Assembly: GCA_947259495.1 (NCBI GenBank)
Contig: CAMYLV010000016.1
Location: 44,505-108,504, forward strand
Length of the DNA stretch: 64,000 nt
Source: an uncultured Desulfobacterales bacterium
GTDB taxonomy: Bacteria; Desulfobacterota; Desulfobacteria; Desulfobacterales; JAHEIW01
Reading direction: 5' to 3'
Shown here: positions 1 to 31,397 of the stretch, one piece after another
How the letters are laid out: the number at the start of each line of letters is the position of its first letter
Numbering within the stretch: the stretch's first letter is position 1
Notes under the pieces: model-generated
Told to the model about the DNA's origin: nothing
Databases searched by the model: none
The model's input: the letters and a program-made list of their open reading frames with translations, nothing else
Program-made: the position numbers and the translations under genes

Positions 1-1073
1 TGACCGGTGATCAAATTGACCTTTTTAAATTTCCAGTTCCTCAGTGGTATCCGCTGGACGGTGGGCGCTATATCGGAACGGCCCATTTCATCATCAGCAA
101 AGATCCGGAGACCGGGTGGATCAATCTGGGCACCTACCGCAGCCAGTTGCTTGGAAAAGACAAGATGGGTACCCAGTTTATTAAAGGCAAACACGCTGAC
201 ATCATGCTCAAAAAATACCAGGCCATGGGCAAACCCATGCCCGTAGCTTCGGTTATCGGATGTGACCCCCTGCTCTTTGTCCTGGGAGCGGCCCGGGTCT
301 CAGCCTTTGTATCGGAATATGATGTCGCTGGGGCCCTGCGGGGCGGAGCTGTGGAAGTGGTTAAGGGCGAAACCGTCGATCTTCCGGTGCCGGCTCATGC
401 TGAAATCGTCATCGAGGGCGAAGTGGATGCGGATCAATTTATGGAAGAAGGGCCTTTTGGCGAGTATACCGGTTATTATTCCGGTGTCGGCACCGACCCG
501 CGTAATTTCATCGATGTCAAATGCGTCAGCCACCGAAACAACCCCATTTTGTGGGGAACCACCGTGGGTCGGGCGGTCACCGACACGCATATGACCATGG
601 CCCTCTCATACGGCGCAACCCTCTGGCAGCAGCTGCTGGCCATGAAAATACCGGGCCTTAAAGCGGTTTACTGCCCGCCGGAAGGCTCGGGACGTTTTCT
701 GGCTATCATTTCCATGAAGCAGATGTATCCCGGACATGCCGATCAGGTTCTGACCGCTGCCATCTCCACCGAGATGGGTGCCTATGGTCTGAAGACGGTC
801 ATCGTGGTTGATGAAGATATCGAACCCTGGGATATCCCCAGGGTCATGTATGCCCTTAGTTTCCGATTCCAACCCAATCGATCCCAGGTCATCAAGCGTG
901 GAAGATCAACGCCTCTGGATCCTTCTTTGCCGATCGAAGCCAGGGAAATTACGGGCAGACTCCTGCTGGATGCAACCATTCCGTATGATTGGAAGCATAA
1001 ACCCATTCCGATCGAACTGGATCCGGAAATGGTTGAGAGGATTAAGGGTCGGTGGTCTGAACTGGGCCTTTAG
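1..1073 (+). CDS. UbiD-family (de)carboxylase, 5'-truncated by window edge
   Basis: Frame 3 is open from base 3 (TGDQIDLFKFPVPQWYPLDGGRYIGTAHFIISKDPETGWINLGTYR...). It runs continuously into ORF 147..1073. This DGG-RYIGT / GxYR region is typical of UbiD. The N-terminus lies left of the window. Confidence 0.85.
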   Translation, partial: TGDQIDLFKFPVPQWYPLDGGRYIGTAHFIISKDPETGWINLGTYRSQLLGKDKMGTQFIKGKHADIMLKKYQAMGKPMPVASVIGCDPLLFVLGAARVSAFVSEYDVAGALRGGAVEVVKGETVDLPVPAHAEIVIEGEVDADQFMEEGPFGEYTGYYSGVGTDPRNFIDVKCVSHRNNPILWGTTVGRAVTDTHMTMALSYGATLWQQLLAMKIPGLKAVYCPPEGSGRFLAIISMKQMYPGHADQVLTAAISTEMGAYGLKTVIVVDEDIEPWDIPRVMYALSFRFQPNRSQVIKRGRSTPLDPSLPIEAREITGRLLLDATIPYDWKHKPIPIELDPEMVERIKGRWSELGL

Positions 1074-1254
1074 AACGTAACTCAAGAATGCAACCACGAA
1101 GTGGCTTAGGTTTAAGGCGTCGCTCGCGCAGCGCAGGCGCTTGCGCCGTATCACGCTCCATCCTTTATTATAAAATTATAATAATTCCAGTGTTTTAAAA
1201 CATTTAGTTCACTTTTCACTTTAGCACATATCTTTTGAAAAAGGAACTGCGAAA

Positions 1255-1785
1255 ATGGCAGATAAAAAATTGTTGGACGGCAAACGGGTTCTGGCAGTCG
1301 ACGACGAACAGGATGTTCTGGATACTTTGGTCGATTTACTGCCGATGTGTGAATTGGTAACCGCCTCTTCATTTGAGGAGGCCCGGGAACTGCTGGAATC
1401 CCGGCAGTTCGATCTGGTCATTCTCGATATCATGGGGGTTGACGGTTACGGCCTGCTGGATATGGCGACCCGTAAAAACATCCCGGCGGTCATGCTGACC
1501 GCCCACGCCTGGAGCCCGGATAACCTGGTGCGATCGATCAAAGAGGGTGCGGTCTCCTATCTGCCCAAAGAAGAACTGACAAACATCACAGGCTATTTAA
1601 ATGATGTTTTAACCGCTCAAAAGGAAGGTCGCGATCCATGGGCGTCCTGGCATGATCGCTTGCCGACCTCGTATTTCGAGCGGCGCTGGGGTGCTGCCTG
1701 GCAAGACAACGACCGGAAATTCTGGGAAACTTTTAAAGCCGGTTTAAAGGCCAAGCGCTCCGCATCAAAAAAAGAAGAGGACTAG
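1255..1785 (+). CDS. Stand-alone response regulator (REC domain) with Trp-rich C-terminal tail
   Basis: Has the CheY-like pattern VLAVDDE...DLVILDIMG...MLTA...K. There is no DNA-binding output domain. It is a paralog of 50184..50672. Confidence 0.85.
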   Translation: MADKKLLDGKRVLAVDDEQDVLDTLVDLLPMCELVTASSFEEARELLESRQFDLVILDIMGVDGYGLLDMATRKNIPAVMLTAHAWSPDNLVRSIKEGAVSYLPKEELTNITGYLNDVLTAQKEGRDPWASWHDRLPTSYFERRWGAAWQDNDRKFWETFKAGLKAKRSASKKEED

Positions 1786-1952
1786 AAACTGTCTCTAAAT
1801 CGCACGATATAGAACGAATTAAATCATTACCCATAAATACACAGCAGCGATTTGCAAGCTTAACCGTTTATGATAGCTTTATGTCAACAATTCACCACTG
1901 GCTTAGGTAATTTATTGTGGCGCTGTGTATAGCACTTAAAGGGAGGAAAATT

Positions 1953-3608
1953 GTGAAACCGATCCGTTATCAAAAAGAGATGGTCGCTGAATTCTTGAAC
2001 GAAGGCTACTGGACTCAGGAATTGTTTTACGATTTCTGGGATCGCAATGCCCGCGAGTATGGCGACCGGGAAGCATTGGTGGATTCCAAATATCGCGTTA
2101 CATGGGCGGAAGCCAAACGCCTGGTGGACGGGATTGCCGCTACCTGGGTTCAAATGGGCATCCCCCAATATTCGCGCATCATTATTCAATCGCCGAACAG
2201 TGTTTACGGCTTTCTGGCCAGAATCGCCAGTGAAAGAGCCGGTCTCATATCTCTGACGGTCTATCCGTATCTTCGTCAACGGGAATTGGAATACATGGTG
2301 GAACGAACCGAAGCCGCAGCAGTGGTCATTCCCCATGAATACCGCAAGTTTGATTATCTGGAAATGTATAAAGAACTGCAACAGCGGTTTCCGCACCTCG
2401 AAAATATCTTTCTTTTTGACGACACGGTGCCGGATTCGGCCCCGCAGAACACCTATTCGCTAACCCAGTTGGCCCGGGAGGCCGCTGAAAAACCCATCGA
2501 TGAAAATGTCCTTAAGGAAAGACGATTGGATCCGCTCTGGAATATTGCGCTGCTGACCACCACTTCAGGCACTACCGGACTGCCCAAACTGGTGGAATGG
2601 CCCACTGCCCCCCGGGTTTGCACGTCCAAAGGGCGCGTGAGCATCTGGGGCCTTAACAAGGATGACATTACCATGGCGATTGCCCCGCATGCCGGCGGCG
2701 CAGCCGGAACCCTGACTTATTTTGCCGCACCGTTGGCCGGTGCCAAAACGGTCATGCTAGAAGAGTTCATCCCGGAGGATGCCCTGGCCCTGATTGAAAA
2801 GGAAAAAGCCACGGCTATCGGCGTGGTCCCCACGCATCTGGTGCGCATGCTGGAATGCGACACCTCCAAATATGATCTTAGCTCCCTGCGGTTCATCCGC
2901 TCCGCCGGCGGCTACCTTTCGCCTCAGATTGCCGAAGAAGCCGAGAAAGCCTTCGGTGCTGTCATCACCAGCGATCTGGGCACCCAGGACATGGGCTCGG
3001 TGTCCGGATGTCGGGTCGAAGATAGCAAAGATTTGCGCCGCCGAACCGTCGGGCGCATGCTGCCCGGCAACAAGGTGGTCCTTAAGGATGAAGACGGCAA
3101 TAAGGTGCCGGACGGCGAGCCCGGCATCCTGTATTTCAGAGGTCCCCACGCTCCTGCCGGCTATTATCGCGATGCAGAGCTGACCTCCACTGTGTTCGAT
3201 CCCGATGGGTGGACCACTACCGGCGACATTGTCAAATTCGACCAAGAGTGTCTCTGGATATTGGGCCGCGCCAAAGATATGATCATACGCGGGGGTCAGA
3301 ATATTTATCCAGCTGAAATCGAGGGCTTGCTGAATGATCACCCCAAGGTGGCCTCGGTCGCCGTTGTCGGCTATCCGGACAGGGAAATGGGTGAACGGGC
3401 CTGCGCTTATGTGATACCCAGAGCAGGTCAGGATTTTACCTTCGATGAAATGGTGGAATTCCTGAAAGGCAAACAACTGGCCATGTTCAAACTGCCGGAG
3501 CGCCTGGAGGTTGTTTCGGAATTTCCGGCTGTCGGTGACTCGGGCAAGATCAACAAAGAAACTCTTAAAAAGGAAATTGCGGAGAAGTTAAAGCAGGAAA
3601 GTGCCTAG
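1953..3608 (+). CDS. AMP-dependent aryl/acyl-CoA ligase
   Basis: Contains the AMP-binding motif TTTSGTTGLPK and a C-terminal GKI/K motif. A GTG start at 1953 sits 6 nt after GGGAGG (1941-1946). The listed 1917 start is probably too long. Confidence 0.85.
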   Translation: MKPIRYQKEMVAEFLNEGYWTQELFYDFWDRNAREYGDREALVDSKYRVTWAEAKRLVDGIAATWVQMGIPQYSRIIIQSPNSVYGFLARIASERAGLISLTVYPYLRQRELEYMVERTEAAAVVIPHEYRKFDYLEMYKELQQRFPHLENIFLFDDTVPDSAPQNTYSLTQLAREAAEKPIDENVLKERRLDPLWNIALLTTTSGTTGLPKLVEWPTAPRVCTSKGRVSIWGLNKDDITMAIAPHAGGAAGTLTYFAAPLAGAKTVMLEEFIPEDALALIEKEKATAIGVVPTHLVRMLECDTSKYDLSSLRFIRSAGGYLSPQIAEEAEKAFGAVITSDLGTQDMGSVSGCRVEDSKDLRRRTVGRMLPGNKVVLKDEDGNKVPDGEPGILYFRGPHAPAGYYRDAELTSTVFDPDGWTTTGDIVKFDQECLWILGRAKDMIIRGGQNIYPAEIEGLLNDHPKVASVAVVGYPDREMGERACAYVIPRAGQDFTFDEMVEFLKGKQLAMFKLPERLEVVSEFPAVGDSGKINKETLKKEIAEKLKQESA

Positions 3609-3745
3609 AAGCCATTTCAAAACCTCTTTAGAGCTAATTTTGCGGACTTTTGTTAAAAAGCGCTTAGCGCAGTGGAGCGTAAAATCTTGAATTGTTTGAG
3701 GCAAAAGCCGCAAATCGGCTGGAACGGGGTTTTGAAATGGCTTCT
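3607..3745. repeat. Extended imperfect palindrome directly after the CoA-ligase stop codon
   Basis: Perfect 18-bp arms: AGAAGCCATTTCAAAACC (3607-3624) and GGTTTTGAAATGGCTTCT (3728-3745). Inner arms: TTTGCGGACTTTTG and CAAAAGCCGCAAA. Confidence 0.7.
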
Positions 3746-3758
3746 AACCTTAATTAGC

Positions 3759-3831
3759 CTCATGCAAAGGCGCGAAGTCGCAAAGAAGATTTCTAGCGCT
3801 ATACATTATATGCTAAGCGGCTTTGCGTGAG
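3759..3831. repeat. Second imperfect palindrome built from GCAAAG-type words
   Basis: CTCATGCAAAGGCGC (3759-3773) is complementary to GCGGCTTTGCGTGAG (3817-3831) at 13 of 15 positions. Confidence 0.55.
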
Positions 3832-3853
3832 CAATACCTACCATAGATAACCG

Positions 3854-5065
3854 ATGCAAAAGACCGTACTGATCATTTCAACCCTGGACACCAAGGGACT
3901 GGAAACCGATTATCTGATGGAAAAATTGAAGGGACTGGGTCTCAACACGCTCCTGATGGATATCTCCATGCGCGGCGATGCGCCATCCAGCGCAGACATC
4001 CCACCCGATCGAGTTGCCGCAGCCGGCGGCAGCAATTTTGAAGAAATCCGCAACTCACGCAACCGCTCACAGATCACCAATATTACAATGGCAGGCGCCT
4101 CTCGTATTGCAGCTGATCTGCTTTCTGAAAACAAACTCGACGGATTGATCGCAATGGGCGGCTCGACCGGCACGCTAATGGCCACCGAAGTGATGCGGTC
4201 CCTGCCCTTTGGCATACCCAAAGTAATGATTTCTTCTACGGCAGCACTGCCGGGACTTGCCACCCGCTACATCGGTACCGGCGATATCGCCCTTTTCCAT
4301 TCAGTAATTGAAATTTCGGGGATCACCGATTTGCTCAAAAATGTCATGGATCGTGCAGCTGAAGCCCTGGCCGGGATGGTGCTGGGTACGATCACCTCGC
4401 CCAAAGCCCAAAAAGGTAAAGCAATTGCATTGACCATGCTGGGCCCCTGTGAAAAATGTGCCAGCGCCGTTCGTTCCGGTCTTGAAAACAAGGGCTTTCA
4501 GGTCATTGGTTTTTCGGCTGCCGGTATCGGTGACCGGGCCATGGAAGATATGGTTGCTGATGGTTTCTTTCAGGGCGTCGTTGATCTAGCCCCGGGTGGC
4601 GTCGGCGAACATCTGTACGGATTTATGCGGGATGCCGGACCCCATCGTCTGGAAACAGCCGGCAAGGCCGGTATCCCCCAGATCATTTCAACCTGCAGTG
4701 TCAATCACATGACGCCGGCCAAGTCTAAATACAAGCCGGACTATCATAAGCGCCGCAAGTATGATCTGGATAAATTCAGAACCTGGATTCGTTTATCCAG
4801 CGATGAACTCAAGGAGGTCGCCGGGGCTTTCGCCGCTAAACTCAATAATGCGTCCGGTCCGGTCAGTGTCATCATACCGCAAAAGGGATGGTCCTCTGTG
4901 GACAGCCCGGAAAATCCAACTTACGACCCTGAAGAAGATCAGGTATTTGTCGAAACGCTTCGCGAACAGCTGAATTCCGATGTCAGAATAATTGAAATCC
5001 CGGCCAATATGGAAGATGAAACCTTTGCGCAGGCGGTTGTCATGGCTGCATTGGAGATCTTTTAA
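3854..5065 (+). CDS. UPF0261 / Tm-1-like ATP-binding protein
   Basis: The N-terminus MQKTVLIISTLDTKGLETDYL and the roughly 400-aa length match the UPF0261 family pattern as I remember it. Confidence 0.7.
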   Translation: MQKTVLIISTLDTKGLETDYLMEKLKGLGLNTLLMDISMRGDAPSSADIPPDRVAAAGGSNFEEIRNSRNRSQITNITMAGASRIAADLLSENKLDGLIAMGGSTGTLMATEVMRSLPFGIPKVMISSTAALPGLATRYIGTGDIALFHSVIEISGITDLLKNVMDRAAEALAGMVLGTITSPKAQKGKAIALTMLGPCEKCASAVRSGLENKGFQVIGFSAAGIGDRAMEDMVADGFFQGVVDLAPGGVGEHLYGFMRDAGPHRLETAGKAGIPQIISTCSVNHMTPAKSKYKPDYHKRRKYDLDKFRTWIRLSSDELKEVAGAFAAKLNNASGPVSVIIPQKGWSSVDSPENPTYDPEEDQVFVETLREQLNSDVRIIEIPANMEDETFAQAVVMAALEIF

Positions 5066-5455
5066 ATGGCAACTCTGGATTTTACCGTACAAACCGAAGA
5101 AGATGCTTATAATCTTTCCGCCAATGTCAGACTGATTGGCGCCGACGTGCTGGTGGCCATTTGGGGCGGAGAAAGACCTCATATTGGAGCCGTGGCGGTT
5201 GCCCAGCCCCGCCCCAGCCTCAAAGATCCTGCAGTGACCAGTGCCAGCGCATCCGTTATATGCCTTGTGGGGCACAAGGAAGACGAACTGGCCAAGGCGA
5301 CGGCCGAGATTCTGGCAGCGGCATTGAAAACGCAGGTTGTTGTCACAGCCGGGATCCATTGGGACAACCTGGCGCCGGAAGCCATCCAGCGTATCGTCCG
5401 GCACAGTGAAATTCTGGTAGAGATAATTTTGACCCGGCTTGCCGCCGAAACCTGA
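5066..5455 (+). CDS. Small protein translationally coupled to the UPF0261 gene; possibly an LpdD-like prenyl-FMN chaperone (tentative)
   Basis: TAAATG stop/start junction at 5063-5068. The protein is 129 aa with GGERPHIGAVAV. It lies between UbiD/UbiX-context genes. The family assignment is from memory only. Confidence 0.5.
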   Translation: MATLDFTVQTEEDAYNLSANVRLIGADVLVAIWGGERPHIGAVAVAQPRPSLKDPAVTSASASVICLVGHKEDELAKATAEILAAALKTQVVVTAGIHWDNLAPEAIQRIVRHSEILVEIILTRLAAET

Positions 5456-5462
5456 TCTCGTT

Positions 5463-5568
5463 ATACCGCTTTTCATAATAATGTTCTAAGTCAGGGAATT
5501 GGGGTATAAGTGGTTGTAGAAAAAATCGCTTGAATAACGGAACGTTTTTTTGACAACCACTGTAAAAG
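5463..5568 (+). repeat. Copy 1 of a roughly 105-nt intergenic element with interleaved hairpins and a T-run
   Basis: About 80% identical by eye to 48144-48248. Arms: AATGTTC (5480-5486) with GAACGTT (5540-5546) followed by T7, and AGTGGTTGT (5509-5517) with ACAACCACT (5553-5561). Contains TTGACA. Confidence 0.7.
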
Positions 5569-5656
5569 AACTCTGGGATAGACGTAAAAGTATATTCTTT
5601 TAATCCAAAATCATGTATATTAAAAAATAAGATTATATAACCAAAAGGAATAATTG

Positions 5657-6277
5657 ATGGCTAAACGAATTGTAATCGGTATATCCGGTGCCAGTGGGGT
5701 CACCTATGGGGTCCGTATGCTGGAGTTACTCGGAGAAATGGATTTCGAAACCCATTTGATTATCTCCAAGGCCGGCCGGTTAAATATCGAGATCGAAACA
5801 GACTACCAACCCGATGCCGTTGAAGCCATGGCGGATTTTACCTACGACCATAAGGATATGGCTGCATCTTTAGCAAGCGGGTCTTTTTTAACCGAAGGCA
5901 TGGTGGTCGTACCCTGCACCATTAAATCGCTTTCCGGCATCGCCAATTCCTATAATGAAAACCTGCTGGTGCGGGCAGCGGATGTCACCTTAAAAGAAAA
6001 GCGGAAACTGGTGCTGGTTATCAGGGAAACACCGCTGCATGTTGGGCACCTGCGCCTGATGACCCTGGCTGCTGAAATGGGCGCCCATCTGCTGCCCCCG
6101 GTCCCTTCATTTTACCATCAGCCCAAAACCATCGAAGATATCATTGACCAAACCATCGGCAAAGTTTTCGACTATATGGGCATTGAACACGATCTGTTCA
6201 AGCGCTGGGGAGAAAACAAACAGATAGAAAAACCCCGCAAAAAGAATACCCGAATTTTACTGGCACAAAAAAAATGA
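5657..6277 (+). CDS. ubiX: Flavin prenyltransferase UbiX
   Basis: MAKRIVIGISGASGVTYG...VVPCTIKSLSGIA is a classic UbiX/Pad1 sequence. The ATG at 5657 follows AAAGGA. Confidence 0.9.
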   Translation: MAKRIVIGISGASGVTYGVRMLELLGEMDFETHLIISKAGRLNIEIETDYQPDAVEAMADFTYDHKDMAASLASGSFLTEGMVVVPCTIKSLSGIANSYNENLLVRAADVTLKEKRKLVLVIRETPLHVGHLRLMTLAAEMGAHLLPPVPSFYHQPKTIEDIIDQTIGKVFDYMGIEHDLFKRWGENKQIEKPRKKNTRILLAQKK

Positions 6278-6376
6278 TCAGATTGCCGGTCGTTTCATTC
6301 TGATTGATAGCGGCTGAAAAGATTTTCAATTGAAATATTCGACAGCGGCGGGCACTTGGTTTGGAATTCTATTTCC

Positions 6377-7117
6377 TTATTTCTTTCTTTTGTCTTTTAA
6401 ATAAATTGCCTTTGAGGGTCCAACGCCAATAGCTCTCTCTTCGATTTGGAATAGCTTTGTTGCTGATGCAAGTTCCCCCAACTTTTTGTAACCATAGTTT
6501 CGTGGATCAAACTCTGGTGCCTGCTTGGCAATGTTGCTACCCACGGATGCAAGATGAGCCCAACCAGAATCGTCCGAAGATGCCTCAACAGCGTTTCTTA
6601 ATAAATTAACGAGCTTCGTGTCTTTCTTAAGCCCGCTGGTTGTCTTGCGCCTTATTTTCTCACTATAATCACCTTCGGAACGCAGCACTTCAGTGAAAAC
6701 AAACTTATCACACGCAGAAACGAATGCTTCAGGGGTTTTTCCCTCCCCAAATCCATATACAAAAAGGCCCGCTTCCCTTATCCTTGATGCTAACTTGGTA
6801 AAATCACTATCGCTGGATACGATACAAAAACCGTCAAATTTGCCCGTGTAAAGCAAATCCATTGCGTCAATTATCAATGCACTGTCGGTTGCATTTTTCC
6901 CTGAAGTATACCCAAATTGCTGTATGGGCTGTATTGAATACTGTAAAAGAACTTCCTTCCACCCTTTAAGGCCTGCTCGCGTCCAGTCACCGTAAATCCT
7001 TTTTACATTAGCGGTTCCATATTTTGCGATTTCCGATAGTAGTCCGTCAACAATAGAAGGTTGGGCGTTGTCTGCATCTATTAATACGGCCAATTTTTCA
7101 ATTTTTTCGTCTGACAT
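6377..7117 (-). CDS. NYN-domain (LabA-like) protein with C-terminal OST-HTH/LOTUS-like region
   Basis: LAVLIDADNA...KNATDSALIIDAMD...IVSSDSDF matches the NYN pattern. The C-terminal roughly 70 aa resemble OST-HTH. Confidence 0.8.
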   Translation of the reverse strand: MSDEKIEKLAVLIDADNAQPSIVDGLLSEIAKYGTANVKRIYGDWTRAGLKGWKEVLLQYSIQPIQQFGYTSGKNATDSALIIDAMDLLYTGKFDGFCIVSSDSDFTKLASRIREAGLFVYGFGEGKTPEAFVSACDKFVFTEVLRSEGDYSEKIRRKTTSGLKKDTKLVNLLRNAVEASSDDSGWAHLASVGSNIAKQAPEFDPRNYGYKKLGELASATKLFQIEERAIGVGPSKAIYLKDKRKK

Positions 7118-7360
7118 ATTTTCCTTTTATGATTCTAACATTTATATGGGGCGGTGAATCCGCCGGCTTCTGATTGTTCTGCGAATGGATTTAGGCGCCT
7201 CATCGAATGGTTCGCGCAACAGCAGCCGCGATAGAACGATTCGAGCTTACTACTGTCGTCCCGACGCGGTCTGCTGCATGCGCTTTTTAGCTGCCTTTAG
7301 TCTCTATAGTAATAATTTCGACGTGCTCCATCGAAACGCTTCGTTTTTATGCAACACTTC

Positions 7361-7498
7361 TTAAAACAAGCGCCCTGATCCACAGGGACATGGATCGTTT
7401 CTGCCAAGTTTCTCGATCAGTTCCTTGTCCCCATGCACGATGCGAATCCCTCGCTTCACATTTGCTTCGGAAGGGAAACCTCTTCTGCGCTTGCTCAT
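7361..7498 (-). pseudogene. SEC-C motif protein remnant (frameshifted)
   Basis: A 45-codon minus-strand ORF ends ...[14 protein letters not shown]. The expected KKCC continues in another frame. Upstream minus-strand frames carry stop-broken protein-like sequence up to about 8000. Confidence 0.45.
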
Positions 7499-7972
7499 CG
7501 GCTCAAAATAACACCTTCCCTCTGCGTTGTTTCTTCCGTTTCATGGTACACCTCACTTTCTATGGCGGCCTCACCACGGGACAGCTAACTTTAATACCAA
7601 ATGGCAGTCGTCGATTTTGATCTTTTAATATGTCCAATTCCTCGCCGCCCTTTTGACGATATGAATCCCGTTCAATTTCCTTCGAGCTCCCCGCCGCATT
7701 CAATAGGCGTATTAACCATGAACATACCAGCTTCCGCCGCCTCAGACATTTCAAGCTGGCTTCGCAGCTGTGCAGTTTTTTCATCGTCTTTATTCATGCC
7801 GGCAACAAGAAAAGCAAAGCCACGCGGTGTCAGCCTCTCATCCGCTTTTTTTGCCAGACATTTGCAAATGGGGAGCCCCAGATCGGTAGATGAGCTACAG
7901 GCCTTAACAAATGCGTTAATGTCATCGGATGTGATTCCGGAAATGGGGGACCGTTACGGGTCACTTGCAATA

Positions 7973-8040
7973 GGAAATTCAGAAGCAACTAATATGGGCT
8001 TATACCCAAATCGATGGGGTTTAGTCAATCATAATCGAGA
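7973..8040 (+). repeat. Island-boundary direct repeat, copy a
   Basis: The core TTATACCCAAATCGATGGGGTTTAGTCAAT (8000-8029) is identical 30/30 to 25788-25817. It also resembles 22998-23040. Confidence 0.75.
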
Positions 8041-8101
8041 ATAACGATGGGTGGTGATTTACTGAAAGACTGTCGAAAAAGTTCAAACATTTAGTTAACA
8101 T

Positions 8102-8497
8102 CTATTTTAATATTGCGTTCTGAATATACCCTTGCGTTTTACGGGGGTAAGGTTTTCGATGATTTAGACTAAATCTGCGTTCTGACCGTATTTTTCTTGC
8201 TACTTGGCTTCTTCGGTCAAACCCTTTTCTACGGTCCCTGCCCAATCTTTTTTCTGGGAAATAAGTTATACAAAAAAATTTCCGCCTATCCTTTCCTGAA
8301 CGGGTTCCACCATTATCTGTCAGCTTTAATTTCCTGGTCGCCAATATCTGGTCTTTTTTAAGTACACTAATGATATATTTCAATTTTTTCCGAATTGTTT
8401 TGGCATGCATTTTTTTATGTTTGGATAAAACGTAACCACAATATTGACATTTATGCATCCCTTCTTGCGGTAGCTTACATCTTGGACAGTTTTTCAT
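8102..8497 (-). CDS. Zinc-ribbon protein with basic [DE]RR-repeat tail
   Basis: N-terminal CPRC...CQYC. Repeated GKDRRK, GRDRRKGFDRR and SERR motifs. The motif is shared with 24140..24355. Confidence 0.5.
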   Translation of the reverse strand: MKNCPRCKLPQEGMHKCQYCGYVLSKHKKMHAKTIRKKLKYIISVLKKDQILATRKLKLTDNGGTRSGKDRRKFFCITYFPEKRLGRDRRKGFDRRSQVARKIRSERRFSLNHRKPYPRKTQGYIQNAILK

Positions 8498-9110
8498 TTT
8501 TGCTAATGCTTTTTTTAAAAAGAGAGGGTATGATTTTCCACTAATTGAGGCTAACTCTACTACCTGATTACCTTTCTAATAATGGCAGAGATGACGATCA
8601 AAACCAATCCAAGCAATATCATCGACATAGTTTCTGGCTCCAAAATAGGTGGTGTTTGGATAAACTGTCAGTGTTACTTCTGAATTTGAAAAGGGAATTG
8701 GATTTGTGACTTATGAGGAGAAAGTTAAAATTTAATTCAATTTCATTAAATGCCTGAAAATCTATTCAGCCACACGATGAACCACAAAAATTCGAAACTC
8801 AAATTCAATTAAGCAACGGTAGGATTAATTAAATAAAAATGGTAAAGGATGTCAAGTAAAAAGCTGAGAGCTAATAAAAATTTAACAATATTAACAAATA
8901 GTTATGTAGTAATCTAAATATATAGTTATATTGTTTTCTTTGGATAAAGAAATTTTCTATATTGCATTAAATGAAAATTCAAATTTATACAGGGCTTTTA
9001 GATGCCTTGATTAGCTCCTCTTAGCGGACTATCATCTTCCTCTTTTTGAGCAACAGGCTGTATAATCAAACCACAGATACATTGAGAAGCTACCAGTTAT
9101 CACAATAAAG

Positions 9111-9181
9111 GAAATTATTGCAGATACCAAATGGATATCACAGGAATTTTAGCGCTCTGATAGTTGTACTTTGTTGGAAGT
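9111..9181 (+). repeat. Island intergenic repeat family, copy C1
   Basis: Matches 19584-19654 at 66 of 71 positions (GAAATTATTGCAGATAYCAAATG.ATATCACA.GAATTTTAGCGC.CTGATAGTTGTACTTTGTTGGA.GT). Confidence 0.75.
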
Positions 9182-9366
9182 ATAAAAGGTTTTGGAATTG
9201 CAAAGAAACCCGCGATACACAGAAAAAGCGCAAGGTTTAGCAGTGATAAAACAGACTTAACTTGACAATTGCAAATAATAGGTAATGCGTTCTCTTCTGG
9301 GGTCATTCAACAATTTTAAGAAGGTATCATTTACCTGCTTTTCCAGATGCTCCGTTCAGATTATCA

Positions 9367-9876
9367 CTACTTCTCGATAACCATTGTGCCAGCCATTTTA
9401 TCGCCTAGTCTTACCCCTTTCTCATCAGAGAAGATCTTAATAATTTCGATGATAACTAGGATAAAAACAGCAATTCCAATCAGAATATCAATGATCCAGC
9501 CAAGAATTGGTATGAATAAGAAGAACATCATCATGGGACCAAGAGCGAACATCCAGTTTCTTTTCGCAGATGCAGCATAATCGATCTTAGATGTTGGGTC
9601 TTCAATATTTACTACAGATAGTTGCAGCAATTTCTTCCCAATACTTTTATACTCAAGAGCTTCGATAGGTAGAGCATCTCGAAAGAGCATATAAAAAGCC
9701 CCAATAATTCCACCAACAAAAGGTATAAACCCTACAATTATAGAAGCCACAGCATCGATGACAAATGCTATTATCCGCTTAACTGGGTCAGCTTTTGTTA
9801 GTGTGGCATTATTGATCTTTGCTTCATTGGTTTCAGGTTTCTCCTCTTTTGCCTGGACTTCTTTTTCCTCGTTCAT
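9367..9876 (-). CDS. RDD-family membrane protein
   Basis: KRIIAFVIDAV...LFRD...LGDKMAGTMV with 3 hydrophobic segments. The ATG at 9876 follows GGGAGGA. Confidence 0.65.
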   Translation of the reverse strand: MNEEKEVQAKEEKPETNEAKINNATLTKADPVKRIIAFVIDAVASIIVGFIPFVGGIIGAFYMLFRDALPIEALEYKSIGKKLLQLSVVNIEDPTSKIDYAASAKRNWMFALGPMMMFFLFIPILGWIIDILIGIAVFILVIIEIIKIFSDEKGVRLGDKMAGTMVIEK

Positions 9877-10029
9877 AAGACATCCTCCCTGCTGAATACT
9901 TTTTTGTGGACGATTTAAAGGCAATCTCAAAAATGCATCTAACGCCCAATGGCCCACGGATTGTTCCCCAGAATTGAAATGCTCATTTCTCGTGGCAAGA
10001 TGTGGCTCAATTGTCTTTGACCCAATTTC

Positions 10030-11565
10030 CTAGCTTTTTTTATTTAAGCGTTTTATTTCATTCTGCCAGTACTTCATAATATTAGACCCCATAGAGCCAG
10101 CAGCAGTATTAATTTCTGATTTGATATTCTCCTCCATGTTGAGAGGGGTAAATTTAACAGTACCTGTTGCCGGCGAAGCGACAGTTTGTCCTGAGGCCAT
10201 GTCAAATGCCCTGACGGAATAGGCCACCGTTGTGAGCTCCTGGATCCGCCCATAGTATTTTAGCTTCATAGCTCCAGCACGACGTATTTTCGCCAAGAGC
10301 AATATATTCGCCTTATGTTTCGGAACAAATTGTTTGATAGTATACCAAGTCATTGGCAAATCGCCATATTGCGCTTTTTCCATAAGTACGGGTATTTCAG
10401 CAATAGAAATTACTCTCAAACCGCTATCAATCAAACATGTTTCAAGGTGGGCATGAAAAATCGGAATCACGTTTTCATCCCCCGAGACCACCACCAGTGC
10501 GGTAGGAACTTTTGGTAATACCGGGACTACCTGTTTTTTCGTTTGATCGGTATGCGCTTTCAATTGCTCAAGCTCCCCACGTTCATGCTCAATTCTGTCC
10601 GCCTCAGCAAATAAGTGTTTTTTCTCCGCTTCCGGTTCAGGCTCTGCTGTAATGTATTGACTGAATTGGACCGGACGCTTTAATACAAATACAAAATCCC
10701 CCTTGTCCAACTTTGGGTTGTTAATTTTTCCAAATTGGGGATGCTGGGCTTTGTGGGAATAATTGATTACTTTTTCCTGAAGGTATGAACCAAGTTCCTC
10801 TCCGGTGACATAGCCGTCCCGATTGAAATCGGCATAGCCATCCTTGATACCCTGGATAAAACAGATCTTAAACACCGATCGATCGGGCACTTGCTCGTTC
10901 TCTCTGCCTGCGGTAATAAACTCCCTGACCGGTGCGGCGATTTTTTCCTCGATATATTCTGTAGGCGCAGCCCGCACCATGGTAAAGATTGCACCAGAAA
11001 AACATGAATCAAAAACCATCAACACATGCTTGGCCCGGATACGTTTGGCTACGGTTTCAATTTGACGCATATCGATGGCGCGCCGCATAAAGTTTGTTTC
11101 ATCTTGAGTCGGGCGAGGGGCGTCCACCGGAACGATGTAGCCTAATTTTGTACCGTCGGCTTCTTCGAGTGTATGACCATGACCCGAGAACCAAAAAAGA
11201 ACACCCTTGTCTTTTACCTTGCCGGGGCCCGTTATCAGCTTATTCAATGCGTTATCCAAACGGTCCCAATCAGGGTCTTCAAGCAAGTCAACCTGCCAAC
11301 CCATCTCTTTGAGTGTGATGGCAATCTCGCGGGCATCATTTACTGGATTGGGTAGTCTGGGCCAACCGGCTCTGTAATCTGAGCAACCCACTATCAGTGC
11401 ATAATAACCAGAGTAAAGTGATATCTGCTGGGGAGAACCTGAATGGGTCTTGGCCTTAACGAAGATGCCTCTGGAAGTAGCATATATAGGAAGTGTAACG
11501 AACACAAAACTGATGACAATTAAAAATAGACAAGCACCCAGAACTCTTGTTTGACTGAAGATCAT
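10030..11565 (-). CDS. Caspase-like (peptidase C14) protein with N-terminal signal/anchor and uncharacterised C-terminal domain
   Basis: A catalytic His/Cys dyad context is present (FWFSGHGH and MVFDSCFSG). The N-terminus is hydrophobic. Confidence 0.8.
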   Translation of the reverse strand: MIFSQTRVLGACLFLIVISFVFVTLPIYATSRGIFVKAKTHSGSPQQISLYSGYYALIVGCSDYRAGWPRLPNPVNDAREIAITLKEMGWQVDLLEDPDWDRLDNALNKLITGPGKVKDKGVLFWFSGHGHTLEEADGTKLGYIVPVDAPRPTQDETNFMRRAIDMRQIETVAKRIRAKHVLMVFDSCFSGAIFTMVRAAPTEYIEEKIAAPVREFITAGRENEQVPDRSVFKICFIQGIKDGYADFNRDGYVTGEELGSYLQEKVINYSHKAQHPQFGKINNPKLDKGDFVFVLKRPVQFSQYITAEPEPEAEKKHLFAEADRIEHERGELEQLKAHTDQTKKQVVPVLPKVPTALVVVSGDENVIPIFHAHLETCLIDSGLRVISIAEIPVLMEKAQYGDLPMTWYTIKQFVPKHKANILLLAKIRRAGAMKLKYYGRIQELTTVAYSVRAFDMASGQTVASPATGTVKFTPLNMEENIKSEINTAAGSMGSNIMKYWQNEIKRLNKKS

Positions 11566-11864
11566 TTGTCCCCCTCTTTTATGTTATTATAGAAGAGTTT
11601 TGCCGAACTAAAAAATCTTAAAAGGACAAATTTGTCTTGATAACAATCTTATAGTCTATTAAACTGACAAGGTCAATTGAATCGTAAAAATAAACCTCAA
11701 AAGCTCGATTACCACACCTTGTGGCACAACTCGATATCATACTCGAATGTTGGCAAGCTATCTGCAACTACAACAAGTCCCTAATACCTGAATCTGAGCC
11801 GCTTATTTATTTGTCGATCAACTTCAATCGAGCTGACTATCATTTAAAATGAAAGGGGGAGATT

Positions 11865-12881
11865 ATGAAAAGGCGTAAATGTTGGGCTGCAATTGGATGT
11901 ATCGTAATGTTTTTTGTAGCGGGCCTGCTTTTTCATGGATGCAAAACGATTCAGCCTAAGCCCGAAGCGAAAGTCACTGAAGCGGGGGGACCTTCTATTG
12001 AAGAAGCCCAGAGTGCAGCCTACGGCGGCCCTATGGCAAGAATTGCCGTATCGCGATTCACTGACAAGACCGGAAAAGGTTGGTGGAGCCGTGATGTCGG
12101 CGATGGTATGGCTGACATGTTGGCCACGGCGCTTTTCCACACCAACCGCTACATTGTGCTGGAGCGGCAGCAACTGCGAGATGTTCTCCGGGAGCAGGAT
12201 CTGGGGGCATCCGGAAGAGTCAAACAGCAAACGGCCGCACCTATCGGCGAAATTGAGGGAGCAGAGCTTTTGATCACTGGCGCTGTGACCGAGTTTGAAG
12301 GTGCCGCTTCCGGTACCAAGGGCGGTTTAGGCGGCTGGGGAAGCGGAGTGGTTGGAGCTGTTTTAGGGGCTTATAAAAAATCGCACATGGCGATTGACGT
12401 GCGTGTCATCGATACAAAGACCTCCCGAATTGTAGCTGTTACCTCTGTAGAAGGATCTGCAACGGACATCGGTGGCTTGGGGGCTTTAGGAGGCGCTGTC
12501 GGTGGTGGAGCCTTAGGGGGTGCTTTGGGTGGTTGGTCAAAGACCCCAACCGAGAAAGCGTTGCGAATCTGTATAAAAAATTCGGTTGATTTTATTGTCA
12601 GTAAAACACCTGCCCAATACTACCATTTTGGCTCTGGTGGAACGGCAGTTCAACCTACATCAGCAACGCCGGCATCGACTGCTCCTCAGTCACAGGAGCC
12701 GTCTGTTCAGGTGACAGGTTCTTCGGTAAACATTCGTTCCGGACCGGGAACAAGTCACGATATAATCGGCAGTGTGAGGCGCGGAGATCGCCTGGTTCTC
12801 CTGGGCGAAAGCGGAAATTGGTTTCAGGTGCGCCTGCCCAATGGAAAAGTAGGATATATTATCAATAAGCTTTGTAAATAA
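11865..12881 (+). CDS. CsgG-like lipoprotein with C-terminal bacterial SH3 domain
   Basis: Lipobox LLFHGC. CsgG-like IAVSRFTDKTG...LERQQLRDVLREQDL...LLITGAVTEFE. Gly-rich loop. SH3b-like VNIRSGPGTSHDIIGSV...GNWFQV. Confidence 0.7.
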   Translation: MKRRKCWAAIGCIVMFFVAGLLFHGCKTIQPKPEAKVTEAGGPSIEEAQSAAYGGPMARIAVSRFTDKTGKGWWSRDVGDGMADMLATALFHTNRYIVLERQQLRDVLREQDLGASGRVKQQTAAPIGEIEGAELLITGAVTEFEGAASGTKGGLGGWGSGVVGAVLGAYKKSHMAIDVRVIDTKTSRIVAVTSVEGSATDIGGLGALGGAVGGGALGGALGGWSKTPTEKALRICIKNSVDFIVSKTPAQYYHFGSGGTAVQPTSATPASTAPQSQEPSVQVTGSSVNIRSGPGTSHDIIGSVRRGDRLVLLGESGNWFQVRLPNGKVGYIINKLCK

Positions 12882-12976
12882 GCCCTCGAGCTAGCTTTGT
12901 TGTTTTGCCTATCGCGTTTTTCCATCTTGTGTCAAACAGGGAGCCCGAACAATGCGGCTAAGTTGTGATTTAATTT

Positions 12977-13024
12977 AAATATCACAGATATTTTCAGAAT
13001 TGATATTTACGACATTGTTGGAGT
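12977..13024 (+). repeat. Island repeat family, partial copy C7
   Basis: AAATATCACAGATATTTTCAGAATTGATATTTACGACATTGTTGGAGTT aligns to the right half of C1, including the GTTGGAG box. Confidence 0.45.
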
Positions 13025-13043
13025 TATCTGTAGACCAGCGGTG

Positions 13044-13075
13044 AATAAAAAGGCAGAGCCAATATTGACTCTGCC
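13044..13075 (-). terminator. Rho-independent terminator candidate downstream of 13116..13595
   Basis: On the minus strand: GGCAGAG-N10-CTCTGCC followed by TTTTTATT. Confidence 0.55.
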
Positions 13076-13115
13076 CCAAAAATCTATAATGACCGACCTC
13101 CTATATATTTTTAAT

Positions 13116-13595
13116 TTATTCAGATTTAGGCAATTCAAATGTCCCTTTTATTATAATGCAATTTTGAAAAGTTCCCGGAGCGATAGATTTGCCACGCTGG
13201 AGCATACTCCATGTACCACCGCCTTTAATGTTCTCCCATTTGCCGGTACCCAATAAAAATTTCCATTCACCACCATTACCATTACCATCCCATCTTACAA
13301 CATTTATATCCCCATTAAGATACATGTATTTACAATACCCGCTCTGCTTTATTTCATCACCTGTTCTTTCGAATATACCCGCACCTATTTCGGAGACATT
13401 GTGAAGCATTTCCGAATTCGTATTGCTTCGAAGCATTCCTTTTAGTTCAAGACCTATAATCATCAATTCTTTGCTATTGTGAACCATAGTGGCTGTCCCT
13501 GATCTACAGGCCATTGATTCGAAAGGGTCTGAAGCCTGAACGGCTGGGATGAAAACGAAAATAGCGAGAAGTGTAATTAAAAATGATCGAATCAT
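13116..13595 (-). CDS. Secreted hypothetical protein
   Basis: Signal peptide MIRSFLITLLAIFVFIPAVQA. AAAGGAGG lies upstream of the ATG. Confidence 0.6.
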   Translation of the reverse strand: MIRSFLITLLAIFVFIPAVQASDPFESMACRSGTATMVHNSKELMIIGLELKGMLRSNTNSEMLHNVSEIGAGIFERTGDEIKQSGYCKYMYLNGDINVVRWDGNGNGGEWKFLLGTGKWENIKGGGTWSMLQRGKSIAPGTFQNCIIIKGTFELPKSE

Positions 13596-13698
13596 AGAGC
13601 GCCTCCTTTCATTTGATTATCAAAAATGTTTTTCTTCAAAAGGCTATTCAGAATCCCAACAGGATTGACAACCTCTTGTTGGGAGAAGGGTTGGCAAA

Positions 13699-13779
13699 AT
13701 TTGAGTGGTTTCTCCATTGAATCTTTACCTGATTGTTAGGTTAAAGTTTAAGGGAAACCAGTTTCTATTTCAGCAGGAA
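13699..13779 (-). promoter_or_regulatory. Conserved leader motif, copy U1 (candidate cis-regulatory RNA or operator region)
   Basis: About 88% identical by eye to 17547-17626. It lies 104-184 nt upstream of the 13595 start. Nested stems: GGTTTC/GAAACC and CTTTAACCT/AGGTAAAG. Confidence 0.5.
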
Positions 13780-13963
13780 AAGTATTTAGAAGTTGAGAAT
13801 CGATTCGACGATGAGTAGGAGTAGCCGATAAGAATTTATTAGAACTAACAACACGTGTGAGATTGAGCTTCAGATGAGTTCAATATTAAAGTTCAAATAT
13901 TATGGACACCATGTAATGTCAATAAAATTCAAGTAAATATATTGAGAATACATGGGTTTTGCC

Positions 13964-14031
13964 GAAATTTCAGATACCATTTGAGTATCACAGGTTTTTT
14001 TGGATTTCAAATGTTTGAATACGTTGGAGAT
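13964..14031 (+). repeat. Island repeat family, copy C3
   Basis: CAGATACCATTTGAGTATCACAGG...CGTTGGAGAT has the same box order as C1/C2. It lies directly 3' of the S41 gene. Confidence 0.55.
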
Positions 14032-14041
14032 ATTCCAAATT

Positions 14042-15037
14042 TTAATCTGAATCATTCCGATTTATAATATCCTCTTGAATCAAGTTCTTGATTCTTTCCA
14101 TTTCAACATCTTTACCAAGTCGATAATCATCTATTGTTCGAGATACCAGAATATCCGGTATTACTCCTCGATCTGGATTTTCACCTGGCAGTGTGTAAAT
14201 AGCTAAAGGAATAGAACCTTTTAATCTACTGTTTGAGAGCTTTGCCGTTACTGGGTCGCTATTAAAGCTTATTCTACCGGCAGTTTCTCTCCCAATTACT
14301 AACCCAAATTCATTGGCCTTGAAAACTGCTGCGAAAACCACCCCAGCAGAAAATGTTTTTTCAGAAATTAGAAGAAATACTTTCCCTTTAAATTTATTCG
14401 ACGCCTCATAAGGCACTCTCATTCTATGATTAACAGCTTCTATGTAGTCACCATTCTTTGCATTAGCTAAATGATTGCCAGCTTTTCCAGCATAGATACT
14501 GTTACGCATTATTTCACTAACTTTAAACTCGAATAGTTTTGCAATTTGGTATTCTGAAGGTGTTAAATTATCAAGAAGATAGAATCCCCAATAACCACTC
14601 CCGCCGCGATTTTCCCTAATGTCAATAACCAAATAAGAAGACTCAGCATATTTATTGAAAAATGAGTCTATAAATTGTTTATAGCTCTCAGCTTTTCCAT
14701 AACTGAAACCTGGCATTTTTAGGACTGGAATTTCTTCATCTTGGATAAAAAACGAATATTTACTGTATTTGTTGTCATGCTGAGTTACAGTTTTGTTAAA
14801 CTCTTTTAAAGTAACAGATTTGAGTTCTGTGATCCTAACTTTTGAGTCGAGTTTATATTTAACCTTCCAAGGCGGTGTGACTTTCAAATACTTAAGAAGC
14901 AGTATATGAAAATAGTCCTCAAAAAAAGACCATTTAACATGATCTAAAGAGGTATGAAATAATTGAGAGCACTCTTTAAACAGTGAAGTGAACCCATCCG
15001 ATTGCACAAAAATTAGTTGAGTGTTAAGAGGGGTCAC
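14042..15037 (-). CDS. S41-family (tail-specific-like) serine peptidase
   Basis: LVIDIRENRGGSG and ISEKTFSAGVVFA (Ser nucleophile context), plus GRETAG. The start is uncertain (GTG) and no signal peptide is evident. Confidence 0.75.
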   Translation of the reverse strand: MTPLNTQLIFVQSDGFTSLFKECSQLFHTSLDHVKWSFFEDYFHILLLKYLKVTPPWKVKYKLDSKVRITELKSVTLKEFNKTVTQHDNKYSKYSFFIQDEEIPVLKMPGFSYGKAESYKQFIDSFFNKYAESSYLVIDIRENRGGSGYWGFYLLDNLTPSEYQIAKLFEFKVSEIMRNSIYAGKAGNHLANAKNGDYIEAVNHRMRVPYEASNKFKGKVFLLISEKTFSAGVVFAAVFKANEFGLVIGRETAGRISFNSDPVTAKLSNSRLKGSIPLAIYTLPGENPDRGVIPDILVSRTIDDYRLGKDVEMERIKNLIQEDIINRNDSD

Positions 15038-15132
15038 ACTTTTTTAAAAAAAATCGAACAGATGCTGTGAATGACGCTTGAGGTTGAGAATTGCAAATTA
15101 TTTGACTGAAATCCAAATACGACAAAGGTACC

Positions 15133-15208
15133 GATACATTGAGAATACATGCATTTTGGCATTTTTACAGATACGAAATGGATGTCTGGATTTGTAAGCT
15201 CACTGGTA
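15133..15208 (+). repeat. Island repeat family, degenerate copy C6
   Basis: GATACATTGAGAATACATG...CAGATACGAAATGGATGTCTGG shares its left boxes with 13940-13990 and 9078-9145. Confidence 0.35.
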
Positions 15209-15569
15209 TCTGAATTGTTTGTAAAATCCAACAGAAAATATCGCATTAAATTTCAGCCATTACATAGGAGAATAGTACGATAATCAGTGCGCTTTTTCAA
15301 AATTTATTTTTAATATTAATAATTCTTTATATGAGCATCTCGGCCTGCGACAATTTTAAAAATGGGTGTCAATTCGCTTCTCCTGTCAGAATTTTTTTGG
15401 AGCTGTTGTGGATATTTCAATGGCAAGGAGTTTGAGCGTAAGAACAGGAAGGCGGGTCACTTTGATAACAAGATTTTCAATGCTTGCCATAGAAGCCATA
15501 CAATGAGGATTATAATCCAACAGATAATTGTTACGTGGAGTATTTTTAACATTCTGACTACTGAATTTC

Positions 15570-16507: not shown

Positions 16508-16552
16508 ATTTTGCACCATTTTGCATTTTGCATTTTGCTATAGTTGAAATGA

Positions 16553-31396: not shown

Positions 31397-31397
31397 C

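Follow-up and report, generated by a model that had tools for sequence, protein, structure and literature searches.

A divergent MarK-family UPF0261 protein in a putative phenol-carboxylation gene cluster of an uncultured Desulfobacterales bacterium

The first 6277 nucleotides (nt) of a 64,000-nt stretch of contig CAMYLV010000016.1, from an uncultured Desulfobacterales bacterium (the whole stretch is called the window below), carry genes for a UbiD-like (de)carboxylase, a response regulator, an AMP-forming aryl-acid ligase, a UPF0261 (Tm-1-like) ATP-binding protein, a small protein and the flavin prenyltransferase UbiX. All six genes lie on the + strand as the original prediction listed them, with the UbiD gene truncated by the window edge, and the arrangement raises the question of which pathway the cluster serves and what a UPF0261 protein contributes beside enzymes of prenylated flavin mononucleotide (prFMN). 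We consider these genes very probably to be the downstream part of a phe-type operon for the anaerobic catabolism of phenol or a close phenolic compound by a sulfate reducer, in which the UPF0261 protein may act as a phosphotransferase, and we assign to this explanation as a whole a probability of roughly 0.55. Since the cluster type has already been published, it is not a new system. New with respect to the searchable literature is that the UPF0261 protein is a fixed, clade-specific and remodelled member of the carboxylase-ligase-UbiX core in many lineages, and that this core protein belongs to a family now known to include aromatic kinases.

A phe-type cluster and its relatives

The truncated gene at 3..1073 encodes 356 of about 468 amino acids (aa) of the UbiD-like enzyme, the N-terminal ~112 aa lying beyond the window edge. 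The fragment matched the Pfam models UbiD (PF01977, 3.5e-66) and UbiD_C (PF20696, 1.7e-29), and scored 400 bits on TIGR02724 (phenylphosphate carboxylase beta), whose equivalog cut-off is 468.95. Full-length 468-aa orthologues, 94-96% identical to it, exceeded this cut-off, with 506 bits in locus L003 (96% identical over the shared part) and 523 bits in L016, where L numbers denote the related loci. Among solved UbiD structures the best match reached 297 bits, and phthaloyl-CoA decarboxylase (Pcd), the lowest-ranked of 40, gave 50 bits (E 1.6e-12), so that identity with Pcd was rejected. The matches point to a UbiD of the phenylphosphate carboxylase beta (PpcB) type, which would operate in the carboxylating direction and therefore place the ligase downstream of carboxylation. 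The window and the main-clade loci each have a single UbiD gene, and no PpcC-like 10-kDa subunit or PpcD-like HAD phosphatase was recognised among the annotated neighbours in the window and related loci; the cluster does not have the alpha, gamma and delta companions that accompany PpcB in the Thauera style.

The ligase gene (1917..3608; AMP-binding, PF00501, 5e-57; AMP-binding_C, PF13193, 1.8e-12) probably starts at 1953, because its orthologue on the syntenic 527-kb contig L114 is 551 aa long. It reached no equivalog cut-off of the NCBIfam models, its closest solved relatives are DhbE and salicylate-AMP ligases (248 bits), and it is probably a hydroxybenzoate-CoA ligase. UbiX (5654..6277, PF02441), which would synthesize reduced prFMN (prFMNH2), scored far above the cut-offs of NF004685 (260.6 bits, cut-off 188) and TIGR00421 (243.6 bits, cut-off 108.9). 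The regulator between UbiD and the ligase (1255..1785) is a receiver-only protein of 176 aa (PF00072, 4e-12), found in a subset of the related loci only.

The core UbiD-ligase-UPF0261-UbiX corresponds to the published phe core of Desulfatiglans anilini, H567DRAFT_02059-02056. The D. anilini locus (L115, locus tags H567DRAFT_02061 to 02049), published as the 'phe' (pps-ppc) cluster (PMC6114531, PMC7500099), runs UPF0261 (404 aa), LysR (- strand), UbiD (468), ligase (552), UPF0261 (403), UbiX (193), three Hcr-like genes, PpsA (615), PpsB (358), regulator (175) and a further ligase (443). The UPF0261 protein of its core (H567DRAFT_02057, our P0392) is 71% identical to that of the window and has the same clade-specific residues. 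Proteome areas in the supplement of PMC7500099, given here in the order 4-aminobenzoate / aniline / benzoate / phenol, showed UPF0261 02057 about 50-fold up on phenol (0 / 5.0e7 / 5.3e7 / 2.5e9), ligase 02058 about 15-fold up (8.5e8 / 8.0e8 / 6.6e8 / 1.26e10) and the 175-aa regulator 02050 about 6-fold up (1.06e9 / 8.8e8 / 6.9e8 / 6.0e9), with PpcB 02059 at 1.5e9 / 8.8e8 / 8.8e8 / 1.8e10. On phenol the UPF0261 protein was represented by 17 peptides and 91 peptide-spectrum matches (PSMs), and UbiX 02056 was detected on phenol only (PMC7500099). The D. anilini authors discussed no UPF0261 gene and called the function of ligase 02058 unknown.

The two clusters share the same-order core of PpcB-type UbiD, DhbE-like ligase, UPF0261 and UbiX, together with a receiver-only regulator and, presumably upstream of the window, a divergent LysR gene and PpsA/PpsB. 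They differ in that the Hcr genes and ppsAB follow UbiX in D. anilini whereas ppsAB precede UbiD in the lineage of the window, in that the regulator of the window cluster stands between UbiD and the ligase, and in an LpdD-like gene before UbiX that the D. anilini cluster does not have. D. anilini also has no gamma subunit, and its phenylphosphate carboxylase activity could not be demonstrated in extracts. Both points belong to the acknowledged gaps for sulfate reducers, in which the energy bill of the pathway seems too high, and the carboxylase is inactive in extracts and comes without subunits that the Thauera enzyme needs (PMC6114531).

The same gene order recurs in 31 genome loci, which come from metagenome-assembled genomes (MAGs) of Desulfobacterales and Desulfatiglandales, and in 80 metagenome loci, and this recurrence far exceeds chance. 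We counted neighbours by tblastn around 89 UPF0261 genes of the type found in the window (S-type, defined below); since the loci were chosen through UPF0261 similarity, the counts are conditional frequencies and not genome-wide co-occurrence. In 58 of 61 loci a ligase gene of the same orientation stood no more than 2.6 kb upstream, which makes the ligase the conserved partner of this UPF0261 clade. UbiD lay within 5.2 kb upstream in 52 of 53, and UbiX within 2.5 kb downstream in 47 of 60 (38 of 40 when anywhere in the locus is counted), so the adjacency of UPF0261 to ubiD and ubiX, on which the original prediction had staked its proposal, is strongly conserved across genomes. Ligase and UPF0261 genes are separated by a median of 15 nt, with 32 of 57 spacers at or below 20 nt and nine pairs overlapping. 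PpsA or PpsB was present in 18 of the 22 loci covered for 8 kb each way, and Hcr-like Mo subunits in 11 of them; the other four had no PpsAB within 10 kb, yet carried UbiD-ligase-UPF0261-UbiX and Hcr. Identity correlations across loci gave rho values of 0.75 for ligase and UPF0261, 0.61 for UbiD and UPF0261, and 0.85 for UbiD and ligase. Co-variation as proof of a ligase-UPF0261 pair was rejected, because rho did not discriminate and swap examples ran both ways.

Two architectures can be described. The closest relatives of the window locus, such as L003 and L114, have the order HD or NUDIX hydrolase (-), LysR (-), PpsA-like (618 aa), PpsB-like (355 aa), UbiD, regulator, ligase, UPF0261, LpdD and UbiX (+). 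The second, for example in L016, consists of a divergent LysR gene, UbiD-ligase-UPF0261-UbiX and three Hcr-like genes (FAD, 2Fe-2S and Mo), with no PpsAB within 10 kb. PpsA-like (PEP-utilizers) and PpsB-like (PPDK_N) genes with the divergent LysR gene lie directly upstream of UbiD in L003, L017 and L114, and judging from the relatives with 94-96% identical UbiD, ppsAB would be found upstream of the window edge as well. In one locus, L113 (7309-13634), of a 4.98-Mb Desulfobacteraceae genome, an IS21-type transposase pair occupies the ligase position and is followed at once by a tandem pair of UPF0261 genes and by UbiX, and the cluster therefore appears disrupted there.

On these gene identities the pathway could run as follows. 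A PpsA/PpsB-like dikinase, encoded upstream, would convert phenol to phenylphosphate, and the PpcB-type UbiD with its prenylated FMN would carboxylate the aryl phosphate para to the oxygen, yielding 4-hydroxybenzoate. UbiX would make the prFMNH2, which the LpdD-like protein may hold and hand to the apo-carboxylase. The DhbE-like ligase would then convert the acid to 4-hydroxybenzoyl-CoA, drawing carboxylation forward, and an Hcr-like Mo enzyme (4-hydroxybenzoyl-CoA-reductase-like, with genes in many relatives) would form benzoyl-CoA.

The Pps and Ppc subunits of Thauera aromatica (PpsABC/PpcABCD) reportedly divide these tasks between them (PMC6114531), and the likeness lies in the ATP-dependent phosphorylation of phenol, in the UbiD-type carboxylation that follows and in the ubiX-like gene of the cluster. 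Unlike the Thauera system, the locus studied here has a single UbiD gene and is without PpcC (10 kDa) and PpcD (HAD phosphatase); PpsC-like CBS genes occur only in some relatives of the window cluster, and UPF0261, the DhbE-like ligase and sometimes LpdD are added. The benzene 'Magic cluster' of a 2026 paper (PMC13101534), also considered, turned out to be unrelated.

The UPF0261 protein and its candidate chemistry

The UPF0261 gene at 3854..5065 encodes both Pfam halves of the family (PF06792, 6.9e-51; PF23189, 1.8e-67), and its product aligned over its full length (residues 4-402) with the structure of MarK (9MPY, E 9.6e-57). The first activity of a UPF0261 protein was reported in 2025 for MarK (Saro_1862) of Novosphingobium aromaticivorans, a kinase that attaches phosphate to the phenolic hydroxyl group of acetovanillone and similar aromatic compounds while ATP is converted to ADP. 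In the same account ATP is placed at D14-T15-K16 of the N-domain, and the C-domain holds the substrate through G195, H219 (hydrogen bond to the phenolic oxygen), H304 (stacking), T196, F283, I285 and H348 (PMC12624787, PDB 9MPY). The window protein retains the ATP-site residues as D12-T13-K14, as does the main clade, together with GGSTG and the equivalent of G195. Besides this full-length two-domain fold, the two proteins have in common that they stand in aromatic catabolic clusters in which a phenolic phosphate ester precedes carboxylation. They differ in host, that of the window being a strict anaerobe, and in partners, which are the biotin carboxylase AcvCDE and the phosphatase AcvF for MarK but an AMP-ligase and a UbiD carboxylase in the window. 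The window protein belongs to a distinct, divergent clade within the MarK family, whose linkage to the ligase is invariable.

It had been stated that no role was assigned to a UPF0261 protein in a prFMN context. This still describes the searchable literature, in which none of the papers matching a full-text search for UPF0261 is on anaerobic phenol metabolism, but since 2025 the family does have an activity in MarK. The absence of the canonical PEP-hydrolase-like TIM-barrel (TBST) partner, which had also been pointed out, extends beyond the cluster: tblastn with residues 1-283 of the fusion protein P0222 (PF09370, 7e-82) found no PF09370 gene anywhere in the 64 kb of the window, nor in any of 116 related loci. 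In comparison, 97.4% of RefSeq bacterial genomes with TBST also carry UPF0261, and the two are fused in plant Tm-1 (PMC5028733); the window cluster shares the same UPF0261 domain pair with that system, while it and its relatives are without a PF09370 gene. Gene fusions among 150 UPF0261 representatives involved PF09370, GNAT, TIR or duplicated domains, and none joined UPF0261 to a ligase, UbiD, UbiX or LpdD.

We tentatively propose, with distinctly less than even confidence, that the UPF0261 protein uses an adenine nucleotide to transfer a phosphoryl group to or from the phenolic oxygen of some pathway intermediate, at the carboxylase or ligase step. We prefer this role because it is the only known chemistry of the family, because the ATP site is retained and aryl-phosphatases are co-located, and because UPF0261 is a constant member of the core, PpsAB varies between loci, and delta- and gamma-type subunits are absent. 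Phosphate-handling neighbours count in its favour: a PpsC-like CBS gene lies directly downstream of the S-type gene in seven loci, a gene of the low-molecular-weight phosphotyrosine/aryl-phosphatase family lies between the ligase and UPF0261 in six, and HD hydrolases stand beside the S-type gene in 14. NUDIX hydrolases and a PNPOx-like protein also recur beside it. Two versions can be envisaged. In one, the protein would be a phenol kinase that forms ADP, saves energy and works beside or in place of PpsAB; in the other, it would be a phosphoryl-removing partner that stands in for PpcD and PpcC. The phosphotyrosine-type aryl phosphate bond is said to be about as energy-rich as ATP, and phosphoryl transfer is therefore thermodynamically conceivable either way.

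If the kinase version were true, the cost of phenol activation would be halved, and if the phosphoryl-removing version were true, the phosphoryl group would leave the aryl phosphate at the carboxylase, possibly onto ADP, replacing PpcC and PpcD. Either would answer how sulfate reducers afford the ~4 ATP equivalents of the pathway and explain why phenylphosphate carboxylase has never been reconstituted from them. It is possible, though on balance unlikely, that with the ligase-linked UPF0261 clade a nucleotide-coupled component has so far been overlooked in the way that energy-limited anaerobes carboxylate phenol (and aniline). The S-type protein is in any case a concrete candidate for the missing component, with a defined residue set, based on about 90 diverse loci and the phenol induction of its orthologue.

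Several observations weigh against a phosphotransferase. The acetovanillone pocket of MarK is not preserved: T196, T197, H219, F283, I285, H304 and H348 are replaced by P, C, S, H, T, L and V (T196 corresponding to P198, H219 to S221 and F283 to H285 in window numbering), so that the pocket is not of the MarK type. H219 is kept in 116 and H304 in 94 of 134 family representatives (50% clustering), where the window protein has Ser and Leu, and the family-conserved D152, T197, D282 and N386 have become E, C, N and E. Since the MarK pocket residues are replaced, substrate or chemistry may differ. One sub-clade even has EEK for DTK at the ATP site, and MarK-like paralogues with an intact pocket stand upstream of LysR in several loci. 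A second phenol kinase also looks redundant with PpsAB in 18 of 22 wide loci, and the tightest linkage of UPF0261 is to the ligase, not to the carboxylase.

The altered pocket is conserved in its own right. We define as S-type those UPF0261 proteins with Ser or Thr at the MarK His219 position; the few representatives without His219 include the nearest relatives of the window protein, and seven members of the 'P-C' clade retain it. Clustering of the 89 S-type genes gave 85 groups at 95% identity, 50 at 80% and 11 at 70%; their products are 43-91% identical to the window protein. Twelve S-type-specific positions (R138, E153, P198, C199, G219, S221, A223, G248, N284, Y293, K302 and E387) are 91-100% conserved within the clade, and a C199-x-x-C202 motif that MarK does not have has been gained. 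The pocket therefore looks like a remodelled site under selection and not like decay.

Further UPF0261 genes occur around these clusters. A paralogue in D. anilini, 03869, is part of the aniline cluster, where a PpsB-like gene and a ligase gene flank it, and was seen only with aniline or 4-aminobenzoate (PMC7500099). A third D. anilini gene, H567DRAFT_02061 (L115:3708-4922), upstream of LysR, encodes a protein with a His-type pocket and low abundance that is not phenol-specific. A homologue search from the EEK sub-clade returned only uncultured organisms and no link to 03869. The aryl-phosphatase-family gene (PF01451) between the ligase and the EEK-type UPF0261 gene was seen in L092 (987-1577), L102 (9508-9984), L091, L093, L101 and L107. 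When the window proteins are compared with their L114 counterparts, UbiD and the ligase are each 94% identical and UbiX is 89% identical, but UPF0261 only 70%, so that the last evolves faster than its neighbours. At the nucleotide level the UPF0261-LpdD segment (window 3744-5461) is 74% identical, while the flanking UbiD, ligase and UbiX genes are 84-86% identical (89-94% as proteins), which suggests faster evolution or allelic replacement of the segment.

Other roles for the UPF0261 protein

The UPF0261 protein could instead serve the cofactor, as an ATP-dependent helper of prFMN supply, or of its O2-independent maturation or insertion, together with LpdD and UbiX. How prFMNH2 is oxidised in strict anaerobes is unexplained (PMC10865409, PMC13040415), and the gene order fits such a role: UPF0261 lies immediately upstream of UbiX (47/60) or of LpdD-UbiX, with junctions often of 0 to -4 nt, and in L063, L065, L071 and L097 a different UPF0261 paralogue directly precedes LpdD-UbiX. 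It would also be in keeping with the neighbouring hydrolases of the NUDIX and HD types, which may convert DMAPP to DMAP, with a PNPOx-like protein and with the PF01613 flavin reductase that adjoins UbiX in L114. However, the S-type protein was never seen with UbiD/UbiX alone and follows the ligase (58/61), even in L063-L065, where UbiX is eight genes away. The authors of PMC7500099 located a ubiX-like gene in the phe cluster and list none among the ani genes, although the D. anilini aniline cluster has a UPF0261 gene beside its ligase. Flavin binding is not known for any UPF0261 member, and we regard a cofactor role, although it is the chief alternative, as unlikely.

The same ligase adjacency (95%, with short or overlapping spacers) would be expected if UPF0261 were paired with the ligase and acted on the carboxylated product, either by (de)phosphorylating the 4-OH or 4-NH2 group of the aryl acid or aryl-CoA, and thus aiding reductive dehydroxylation or deamination, or by ADP-forming activation of the carboxylate. 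L090, L099 and L100 have swapped ligase and UPF0261 together while UbiD and PpsA remain 76-81% identical, but in L081 and L084 UPF0261 alone diverges and the ligase is still 82-85% identical, and the identity correlations do not single the ligase out (0.75 with UPF0261 against 0.85 with UbiD). In L053, L063-L065 and L082 the S-type gene is followed directly by Hcr-like genes, the clade-specific gains R138, K302 and Y293 would fit an anionic substrate, and growth on 4-aminobenzoate gave the highest abundance of the aniline-cluster paralogue. The proposed chemistry is without precedent, and 4-hydroxybenzoyl-CoA reductase is not known to need ATP in characterised systems. All in all this pairing seems rather improbable.

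A non-catalytic role, as an ATP-sensing or scaffold subunit that regulates or assembles a carboxylase-ligase complex, would accommodate the lost pocket histidines, the EEK variant at the ATP site and the faster evolution of UPF0261 than of its neighbours (70% against 94% for UbiD and ligase between the window and L114). It would also have a parallel in the Tm-1 protein of plants, a binder of ATP and of a partner protein that, as summarised in PMC12624787, works by binding and not by catalysis. The conservation of the remodelled residues at 91-100% across 43-91% overall identity argues instead that a specific site has been under selection. Induced cells also contain much of the protein (17 peptides and 91 PSMs on phenol), and we consider a pure scaffold very improbable.

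Hardly credible is the scheme that the original prediction took from finding UbiD and UbiX together with a CoA ligase, in which the ligase makes an aryl-dicarboxyl-CoA such as phthaloyl-CoA and the UbiD/UbiX pair decarboxylates it: Pcd systems of this composition, with a UbiD-family enzyme, UbiX and an acid-activating enzyme, exist in sulfate reducers (PDB 8OZ5), but the window UbiD is remote from Pcd (50 bits), its orthologues pass the PpcB equivalog, and the PpsAB and Hcr-like genes in operons of relatives, together with the phenol induction of the orthologous D. anilini cluster, point to phenol carboxylation and not to CoA-ester decarboxylation.

The LpdD-like gene and the rest of the window

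The 129-aa protein encoded at 5066..5455 had been compared, with hesitation, to LpdD, and this comparison proved sound. It matched PF21758, named LpdD_chaperone in a newer Pfam release, with 1.9e-36 and 124.7 bits (cut-off 27), and bears the GGERPHIGAVAV motif. Residues 5-103 of Lactiplantibacillus plantarum LpdD match the same model (5.5e-25, 87.7 bits), and phmmer aligned the window protein with the solved LpdD chains (PDB 8PZH) over residues 7-110 (E 3.8e-06). The metal-binding residues of LpdD, His35/His61/Asp63 (PMC10865409), align with H39/H70/E72, the Asp being replaced by Glu. The protein is thus a true LpdD-family homologue and a putative prFMNH2 chaperone, LpdD itself being known to bind prFMNH2 and to aid the activation of apo-UbiD (PMC10865409). 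As in the LpdB/LpdC/LpdD system of L. plantarum (PMC10865409), where lpdD lies beside lpdB, the gene lies beside UbiX. The differences are that the HMMER alignment shows only ~30% identity, that the window host is an obligate anaerobe whose client would be a carboxylating PpcB-type enzyme and not a gallate decarboxylase, and that the gene abuts a UPF0261 gene and is optional in relatives.

The UPF0261 and LpdD-like genes had been described as overlapping and translationally coupled. Their stop and start codons abut at TAAATG (...TTT TAA ATG GCA...) and do not overlap, and the tight coupling in the window is local, not universal: an LpdD gene lies within 1.5 kb downstream of the S-type gene in 23 of 72 loci (tblastn), which makes it an optional member. 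LpdD-like genes adjoin UbiX in 23 of 26 informative loci and some UPF0261 gene in 18 of 28; in the window an AT-rich spacer of 198 nt separates LpdD from UbiX. UPF0261-LpdD-UbiX is a recurrent triad irrespective of the UPF0261 subtype. In L063 (18899-20122), L065, L071 and L097 (1111-2301) the UPF0261 paralogue directly upstream of LpdD-UbiX retains His219, with junctions of -26 to +22 nt, and the Ser-type copy remains beside the ligase in the same locus. That roughly one in three of these strictly anaerobic clusters carries an LpdD-type chaperone gene is new with respect to the searchable literature. It extends the prFMN-chaperone family to strictly anaerobic, carboxylating UbiD enzymes, and bears on the handling of prFMN without oxygen and on carboxylases for CO2 fixation onto phenols.

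The ligase and UPF0261 genes are separated by 245 nt in the window, compared with ~15 nt in orthologous loci. The spacer holds an imperfect hairpin of 141 nt (3606..3746, no strand assigned) with 35-nt arms that are 83% complementary, which begins within the ligase stop codon and is present as a single copy in the window. A search of 3606-3746 against Rfam gave no credible family, the one match being a spurious, sub-threshold miRNA precursor. The hairpin probably lies outside the conserved system; it may have arisen by a small insertion, or act like a terminator or attenuator, and sets the ligase and UPF0261 genes apart in the window.

A convergent NYN/LOTUS gene (6377-7117, - strand) closes the cluster. 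Compared with L114, ~19.6 kb (window 6300-25900) are inserted between UbiX and the block of oxidoreductase genes described below. GC content falls to 29-46% in this stretch, which contains the NYN-LOTUS gene and other unrelated open reading frames (ORFs). L114 has a PF01613 flavin-reductase gene directly after UbiX, to which the window has no counterpart; the PF01613 family also contains the prFMN maturase PhdC. The block that follows the insertion (25886-32838, - strand) encodes a DAO-family oxidoreductase of 435 aa, a 473-aa protein of unrecognised type, a 4Fe-4S protein of 165 aa, a tungsten-type protein of 646 aa from the aldehyde:ferredoxin-oxidoreductase (AFOR) family and an ORF of 86-93 aa, plus an IclR regulator. 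The DAO/AFOR block accompanies the phenol cluster in L114, L013, L017 and L040, is 77-92% identical to its L114 counterparts, and may serve a BamB-like or an aldehyde step. Farther downstream (37158-44139), genes for a periplasmic binding protein and an ABC transporter are followed by a second AMP-ligase (550 aa, 24% identical to the cluster ligase), and a second receiver-only regulator, 60% identical to that of the cluster, is encoded at 50157-50660.

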